Below are positions 47,821 through 48,652 of a DNA stretch of 64,000 nt, piece by piece (position 1 is the stretch's first letter; each line of letters starts with the position of its first letter). This DNA comes from Octopus vulgaris (lineage: Eukaryota). The stretch spans positions 18,352,001-18,416,000 of the forward strand of contig OX597841.1 in NCBI GenBank assembly GCA_951406725.2. Direction: 5' to 3'. The position numbers and the translations under genes were made by a program. The notes under the pieces are model-generated. The model made no database searches. It saw only the letters and a program-made list of their open reading frames with translations, and was not told the origin of the DNA.

Positions 47821-48652
47821 ACAGCCAGATCGGAGCAGATATTTACACGAGGCACTTCTACCACTGTCTCGGCAATATCTGACCTAAAATTTTCAAATCA
47901 TCGCACTCGCGCCAAATTTATCGGCAGCAAATATAAGCCGCCGATTCCATTACGGAATTAACCAGAAAATTCATAATTAATCAATATAGGGTGGCAAAAA
48001 ATTTCGCAGAATTTTTTTGCCACCAGCGACCTAGTGGGAAAAAATTAAATAGTCATAGACCATTTATAAATTCAACAGCACAATCAAGGAACGGCCATAA
48101 TAGGCCATTCACCCACTAGAAATAACAGCCAAGGCTTCAACCGCAAAACAACATTAATTCCGTAAACCAGGAGAAAATTTAAAAAAAAAACATTTACCCT
48201 GTAATTCTTTATATATATAATTCTTTATTCTTACCATTAAACAATAGAAGAAACGGTGCATCGTATAAAGAATTACAGGGTAAATGTTTTTTTAATTTTC
48301 TCCTGGTTTACGGAATTAATGTTGTTTTGTGGTTGAAGCCTTGGCTGTTATTTCTAGTGGGTGAATGGCCTATTATGGCCGTTCCTTGATTGTGCTGTTG
48401 AATTTATAAATGGTCTATGACTATTTAATTTTTTCCCACTAGGCCACTGGTGGCAAAAAAATTCTGCGAAATTTTTTGCCACCCTATATTGATTAATTAT
48501 GAATTTTCTGGTTAATTCCGTAATGGAATCGGCGGCTTATATTTGCTGCCGATAAATTTGGCGCGAGTGCGATGATTTGAAAATTTTAGGTCAGATATTG
48601 CCGAGACAGTGGTAGAAGTGCCTCGTGTAAATATCTGCTCCGATCTGGCTGT

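Follow-up and report, generated by a model that had tools for sequence, protein, structure and literature searches.

The locus described here raises the question of whether a repeat insertion that breaks off next to the predicted self-cleavage site of its own hammerhead motif records the 5' end of a ribozyme-cleaved template RNA, or whether the break fell there by chance. In the window, i.e., the whole analysed stretch of 64,000 nucleotides, a tandem hammerhead repeat has been inserted into a TA microsatellite as two arms arranged head to head (Table 1); throughout, +1 denotes the first base 3' of the predicted cut. Arm A aligns to the unit with 98.6% match from 48213 down to 47592, contains an intact internal site (+1 at 47723, -1 at 47724), and has its 5' end at -2 to +1 of the second predicted cleavage site reached. 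The match continues over 48212-48213 (TA) and is lost at 48214, in agreement with the initial sequence-only reading, which had placed the junction within 0-2 nt of the predicted GUA^U. The same reading had noted some 18 nt of filler that partly re-copies the arm end, and this holds, with a length of 17 nt (19 nt when the ambiguous TA is included) and a 10-nt re-copy that stops again at +1/-1. Arm B crosses two predicted cut sites uninterrupted (48265/6 and 48749/50). Elsewhere in the window, two arrays of one 62-nt unit, with about 2.5 copies each, are located at 24188-24345 and 31719-31881.

Table 1. Features of the two-armed insertion in window coordinates; signed numbers refer to the predicted cut.
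Feature	Position	Strand	Description	Basis
(AT)n target microsatellite, left flank	47548..47591	no strand		
Arm A	47592..48213	minus	one full unit plus ~131 nt; 3' end at fixed short site (+131/132)	
Complete type I hammerhead in arm A	47716..47822	minus	predicted cut 47724/47723, read through intact	same motif as plus copy
Arm A 5' junction	48211..48213	minus	+1 = 48211; 2-nt TA overlap with filler	
Filler	48214..48230	plus	17 nt: TA dinucleotides, re-copy of last 10 nt of arm A (48218-48227), then 3 nt	
Arm B	48231..48985	plus	5' end at -35; 3' end at fixed long site (~+235-240)	
Complete type I hammerhead in arm B	48651..48757	plus		sequence, constrained fold
Arm B hammerhead, stem I	48651-48658 with 48750-48757	plus		
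Arm B hammerhead, CUGAUGA	48659-48665	plus		
Arm B hammerhead, stem II	between CUGAUGA and GAAAC	plus	long, 68 nt	
Arm B hammerhead, GAAAC, stem III, GUA	GAAAC 48734-48738, then stem III, GUA 48747-48749	plus		
(AT)n target microsatellite, right flank	48986..49006	no strand		

Taken alone, this single junction carries little weight. It may be due to chance, as had been allowed from the outset: uniformly distributed breaks would give such an end at 0.6% per arm end and 1.2% for two arms, which is weak by itself because the family has more than 1,000 insertions. The filler had been taken as a sign of template jumping. It is an ordinary templated junction insert, which may derive from re-priming by the reverse transcriptase (RT) or from end-joining repair, and it was rejected as independent evidence for cleavage, since 17 of 65 simple two-arm junctions carry a filler of at least 5 nt. 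From its re-copy it follows that arm A already ended at +1/-1 at the time of filler synthesis, but the re-copy says nothing about how that end arose.

The unit of 484 nt contains stem I, CUGAUGA, a 68-nt stem II, GAAAC, stem III and GUA^U, i.e., the core CUGANGA / GAAA / NUH with three stems, of which stem I is open, as in type I hammerheads. Of 210 units located by anchors outside the motif, 205 have an intact core, with variation at N7, and the cleavage triplet is GTA in 151, GTC in 58 and GCC in one, so that 209 carry GTA or GTC; core conservation does not by itself reach significance (none of the 11 core columns varies, versus 88 of 489 overall). Pairing was assessed in 21 copies picked for diversity, which are related sequences, hence no probability is attached to the observation that 97.5% of cells are paired and that six pairs have changed on both sides, four of eight in stem I and two of five in basal stem II. 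The constrained hammerhead fold has a free energy of -33.5 kcal/mol versus -36.2 kcal/mol for the free fold, which is 2.7 kcal/mol more stable. A search of the 64-kb window at Rfam gathering thresholds returned no matches, plausibly due to the long stem II. Ribozyme activity of the unit is a prediction from these features. In a subfamily that has diverged further (L270:1480-1700), stems I and II carry compensated changes and the core is intact.

The family is a non-LTR retrozyme with a Penelope-type layout. The 2.8-Gb genome holds 2,442 exact matches to unit positions +1 to +20, and 1,262 long-type 3' ends adjoin A/T runs, which puts the family at no fewer than 1,262 ends. Unit length is 483-501 nt across copies, no reading frame of at least 150 aa extends over the element, and the unit lacks the RT and GIY-YIG open reading frame by which an autonomous EN+ Penelope-like element (PLE) is recognized; RT frames within the fetched loci belong to separate neighbouring elements. 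The unit is thus short, non-coding, dispersed and tandemly repeated with one type I hammerhead each, as in non-LTR retrozymes, and its insertions bear the signature of PLEs, i.e., an inverted arm truncated on its 5' side, 3' ends fixed at two sites, a tail confined to one arm and a microsatellite target. An unbiased 3'-anchored sample consisted of 98 loci recovered from the first 100 long-type ends on contig 1, comprising 169 arms. The fixed 3' ends lie at ~+128-133 (short) and ~+235-240 (long), in (TA)n, one per arm: among the 80 two-armed loci, the 3' end of the partner coincides with the short site in 73 and never with the long site, and in seven the partner is broken or truncated; the other 18 loci are single-armed. 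None of the data sets recorded as carrying the family is listed as RNA. The family is also present in contigs of four runs guessed to be RNA, although these contigs are unable to show ends, circles or expression.

Formation of the template 5' end by ribozyme cleavage, which the sequence-only reading had proposed and had suggested checking by tabulating truncation points, was addressed genome-wide with a search pattern of non-element bases upstream of intact +1 to +16. The pattern gave 101 matches, 100 of which were listed, versus 14 for a reversed control. From 98 distinct contexts, 18 were dropped because they had no element downstream, or intact upstream sequence with an indel, and a further five rows with a mismatched +4 base (reassigned to +5) and one odd row (L213) were removed. 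Among the 100 of 101 matches listed, true breaks comprise 32 arms at -2 to +1 versus 42 at -15 to -3, an excess of 3.3-fold per nt (p = 1.1e-6), and the same comparison per locus gives ~26 versus 36 (p = 2e-5); ends at -2 to +1 amount to only ~1.4% of passes. The breakpoints are accordingly not uniformly distributed: they are in excess at the site and, to a larger degree, 4-9 nt 3' of it. The proposal of cleaved templates draws support from the genome-wide excess, but for a minority of arms, most passes being read through. An initial similarity search had left an impression of 'no excess' from scattered 5' ends; with 40 of 1,817 candidates scored and a bias to long arms, it was set aside and not used for rates. 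Same-strand deletions whose downstream side starts at -2 to +1 were observed at L063:2120-2160 and L109; they skip ~-34 to -3 and ~-21 to -1, respectively, and look as though copying had switched from a cleaved 5' end to the upstream product.

In the GUC subfamilies, which have C at -1 and lack the TATA overlap (subfamily assignment was correct in 60/60 cases in leave-one-out), 14 arms from 10 loci end exactly at +1 versus 16 arms over 14 upstream positions, an excess with p = 3e-4 after allowing for doubling by chance extension. Five perfect two-arm fusions have both arms starting at +1, four of them GUC (L121, L192, L230 and L236) and one ambiguous (L240). Exact-site ends are also found on later crossings (9 versus 15 upstream, 2.6-fold, p = 0.025), which would be expected of a template pool that includes partly cut multimers. 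Genome-wide, ~56-70% of the exact-site ends are in excess of background. The exact-site excess is only ~2-fold when set against the mean rate instead of the upstream neighbours, and the pooled rate at -2 to +4, 0.24% per nt, is near the mean. In the unbiased sample, 0 of 169 arms end at -3 to +4, where the mean rate predicts ~2.5; a piece that begins at +1 (L181) had been left out because its 3' end lay off the fixed sites. The deficit at +2 to +4 relative to -2 to +1 is not significant (3/15, p = 0.08).

A pattern for -2 to +10 gave 272 matches, and among the 100 of these listed, 80 lie at +5 to +10, 12 at -2 to +1 and three at +2 to +4, while five are false; this classification was done by eye, and a script applied to the 30 fetched cases placed 26 of them at +5 to +10. 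An A/T-rich, palindrome-bearing segment served as control (~55 true of 70 matches, ~15 being dropped by eye). The rate at +5 to +10 is ~1.2% per nt versus 0.21% per nt in the control, a ratio of 5.8 (3.9-8.8) by which A/T-richness alone is rejected as the cause of the peak; these genome-wide rates assume capture probabilities of 0.8-0.87 and scaled denominators, the denominator of 3,210 coming from a pattern offset by one base. In the unbiased sample, where the mean loss is 0.21% per nt over 169 arms and 24 arms end at +5 to +30, the rate at +5 to +10 is 0.57% per nt, below the genome-wide estimate; away from the peaks, loss is flat at ~0.2% per nt. Ends within +1 to +30 number 20 on the first crossing, or 0.59% per nt versus 0.198% outside (p = 2e-5; 98 loci, 169 arms), and four on later crossings versus 4.0 expected. 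Bootstrapping by locus gives 3.0 (1.4-5.2) for first and 1.0 (0.2-2.2) for later crossings (P = 0.02), a contrast based on 13 loci and four late events. Furthermore, 8 of 71 loci have both arms ending within +1 to +32 (Fisher p = 2e-6). Of the fetched +5 to +10 arms, 25 of 29 are first-crossing; most of them carry the short end and are fused to an arm with the long end that starts at +15 to +29.

Run-off at a cleaved 5' end, followed by trimming, fits this pattern because the excess at +1 to +30 is restricted to the first crossing and often involves both arms. The main peak, 4-9 nt away from the scissile bond, falls on the base of stem I, at which the RT could also stall, and the peaks could then arise from sequence and structure alone, through stalling and A/T-palindrome junctions on uncut templates. 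The elements for this are at hand, namely TATA at -2 to +2, AATT at +6 to +9 and complementarity of +3 to +9 with +22 to +35, and stalling would agree with the position of the largest peak on the 3' strand of stem I, with the stereotyped partner arms at +20 to +29, with the near-mean pooled rate at -2 to +4, and with the tendency of arm 5' ends to lie near each other anywhere in the unit (no more than 20 nt apart in 21 of 60 simple loci of the contig-1 sample versus 5 expected). However, the sequence is identical at every crossing, yet the excess at +1 to +30 is absent from later crossings; a hairpin loop that is just as rich in A/T and contains TTAA palindromes stays at the mean rate; and the GUC subfamilies, without TATA, still peak at +1 with blunt two-arm fusions. 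We therefore consider stalling on uncut templates unlikely. It is quite improbable that template 5' ends near +1 to +10 are transcription starts of an internal promoter instead of cleavage products: promoter motifs are described for Penelope pLTRs in the available parts of PMC3846280 and PMC11167929, and a start site would likewise yield run-off ends common to both arms, but it would have to coincide to the nucleotide with the scissile bond, where the 14 GUC arms end, and transcripts of tandem loci would end on later crossings also.

The two arms of a locus diverge by 0.23%, versus a median of 4.8% between loci, and private variants are common to both arms in 4 of 49 loci versus 0 in controls; this near-identity and sharing could also arise by later gene conversion. 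Both arms were likely copied from RNA, because neither arm is nested in the other in 27 of 71 two-armed loci. A fold-back origin, in which the inverted arm would be DNA self-primed from the first arm and the junction would reflect hairpin priming rather than two RNA-templated cDNAs, is most improbable. It would agree with the near-identity of arms, the existence of palindromic junctions and the self-priming proposed for Penelope inversions (PMC3846280, in the part available), but the non-nested loci reject it as a general source; at the queried locus, where arm A is short enough to fit inside arm B, it may still apply. The 21 close pairs of 5' ends mostly differ by ~108 nt in length, as if both RTs had stopped at one template position.

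The best explanation, and in our judgement a probable one, is dual-strand-primed insertion in which the excess at the cut site marks a minority of ribozyme-cleaved templates. A Penelope-type RT would prime from both strands of a cut (TA)n target, with two start points, +132 for one RT and +240 for its counterpart, on a shared RNA or RNA species. Circular or uncut templates, the majority, would be read through with random stops and give tandem arms, whereas on the minority of cleaved linear templates both RTs would run off at +1. The cDNA ends could then join bluntly or via TA, which would produce the perfect fusions at +1. More often they would be trimmed and joined at A/T microhomology close by, typically leaving arm A at +5 to +8 and arm B at +20 to +29; the filler at the queried locus would have been copied from the arm end while the ends were being joined. 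More tentatively, and with slightly less than even confidence, one Penelope-type RT pair may draw on two template pools, cleaved linear monomers giving run-off at +1 and fused arms, and circles or end-to-end jumps giving flat read-through. If true, the junctions would directly document, at the genome level, that the hammerhead cleaves in vivo and that an animal retrozyme integrates by a rolling-circle, two-ended route. The queried junction itself is ambiguous, because of the TATA microhomology, its position on a second crossing and a partner arm that extends 35 nt past the equivalent site; its membership in the class of cleaved-template run-off is close to evenly balanced, with a slight lean in favour.

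The same genome harbours a young autonomous PLE with an 811-aa open frame and an RVT_1 match (loci L150:2-1990, L430 and L400-L449), the C-terminus of which is 100% identical in 150 of 150 scored matches (150 of 19,386 candidates). Its arms at L430 (~907-3074 and 3938-6094) are arranged head-to-head, and one short and one ~40-nt-tailed end are found in all 16 resolved two-armed loci (20 fetched), the layout seen also in the hammerhead family. Comparison of this PLE, the one family covered, with the unit gave no DNA similarity beyond that of shuffled sequences (113 and 98 of 200 shuffles scored as high), and no sequence link connects the copy beside L150 to the unit. At L150, ~150-190 nt after the PLE stop codon, there is a minimal hammerhead-like motif that carries U in place of the usual C3 and A in place of G8. 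The swap of C3/G8 for U/A in hammerheads can be functional.

The element and its layout are of known kinds, and ribozyme-set 5' junctions are already known for R2 (PMC3774820, in the part available). In the available text of PMC7229834 and bioRxiv 10.64898/2026.07.22.740005, PLE mobilization from circular RNA is proposed for metazoan non-LTR retrozymes, which share with the octopus family the non-coding A/T-rich tandem repeat, one type I hammerhead per unit and the range from monomers to multimers; the examples given there measure 220-390 bp, as opposed to 483-494 nt with a 68-nt stem II in octopus, and insertion ends, inverted arms and junctions are not mapped relative to the cleavage site in those parts. 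The titles and abstracts searched, covering few subscription papers, contained no earlier mapping of hammerhead-repeat insertion ends to the cut site. As hypotheses for integration, the same partial texts offer circle-templated reverse transcription (PMC7229834) and local tandem amplification (bioRxiv 10.64898/2026.07.22.740005), and the role of the hammerhead in Penelope-type elements is called unclear in the accessible portion of PMC8557442. Junction statistics over more than 1,000 insertions provide a testable readout, namely asymmetric starts at fixed positions, read-through at a flat rate and a cut-site peak on the first crossing, and the counting of junctions is transferable to any hammerhead repeat family.

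With EN+ PLE insertions, as far as the excerpts of PMC8557442, PMC3846280 and PMC11167929 extend, the octopus family shares 5'-truncated head-to-head arms, two fixed RT starts, a tail at one end and microsatellite targeting. It differs from EN+ PLEs with an inverted pLTR, as described in those excerpts, in having no open reading frame, a tail of ~105-108 nt compared with 30-40, and a full-size rather than a minimal hammerhead. The anole PLE protein nicks and extends both target strands, and ribozyme mutants still insert in vitro, the hammerhead being dispensable (PMC11167929); no RNA reads end at the ribozyme site of that element, whereas the octopus family displays an excess of genomic ends there. 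In R2, according to the available part of PMC3774820, cleavage by an HDV-like ribozyme likewise sets the template 5' end, and where R2 is cleaved at the element end, junctions vary via microhomology priming. Cleavage in R2 defines a full-length 5' end, however, whereas in octopus the cut site would set the ends of a minority of arms in a tandem unit without termini, and two cDNAs would be joined.
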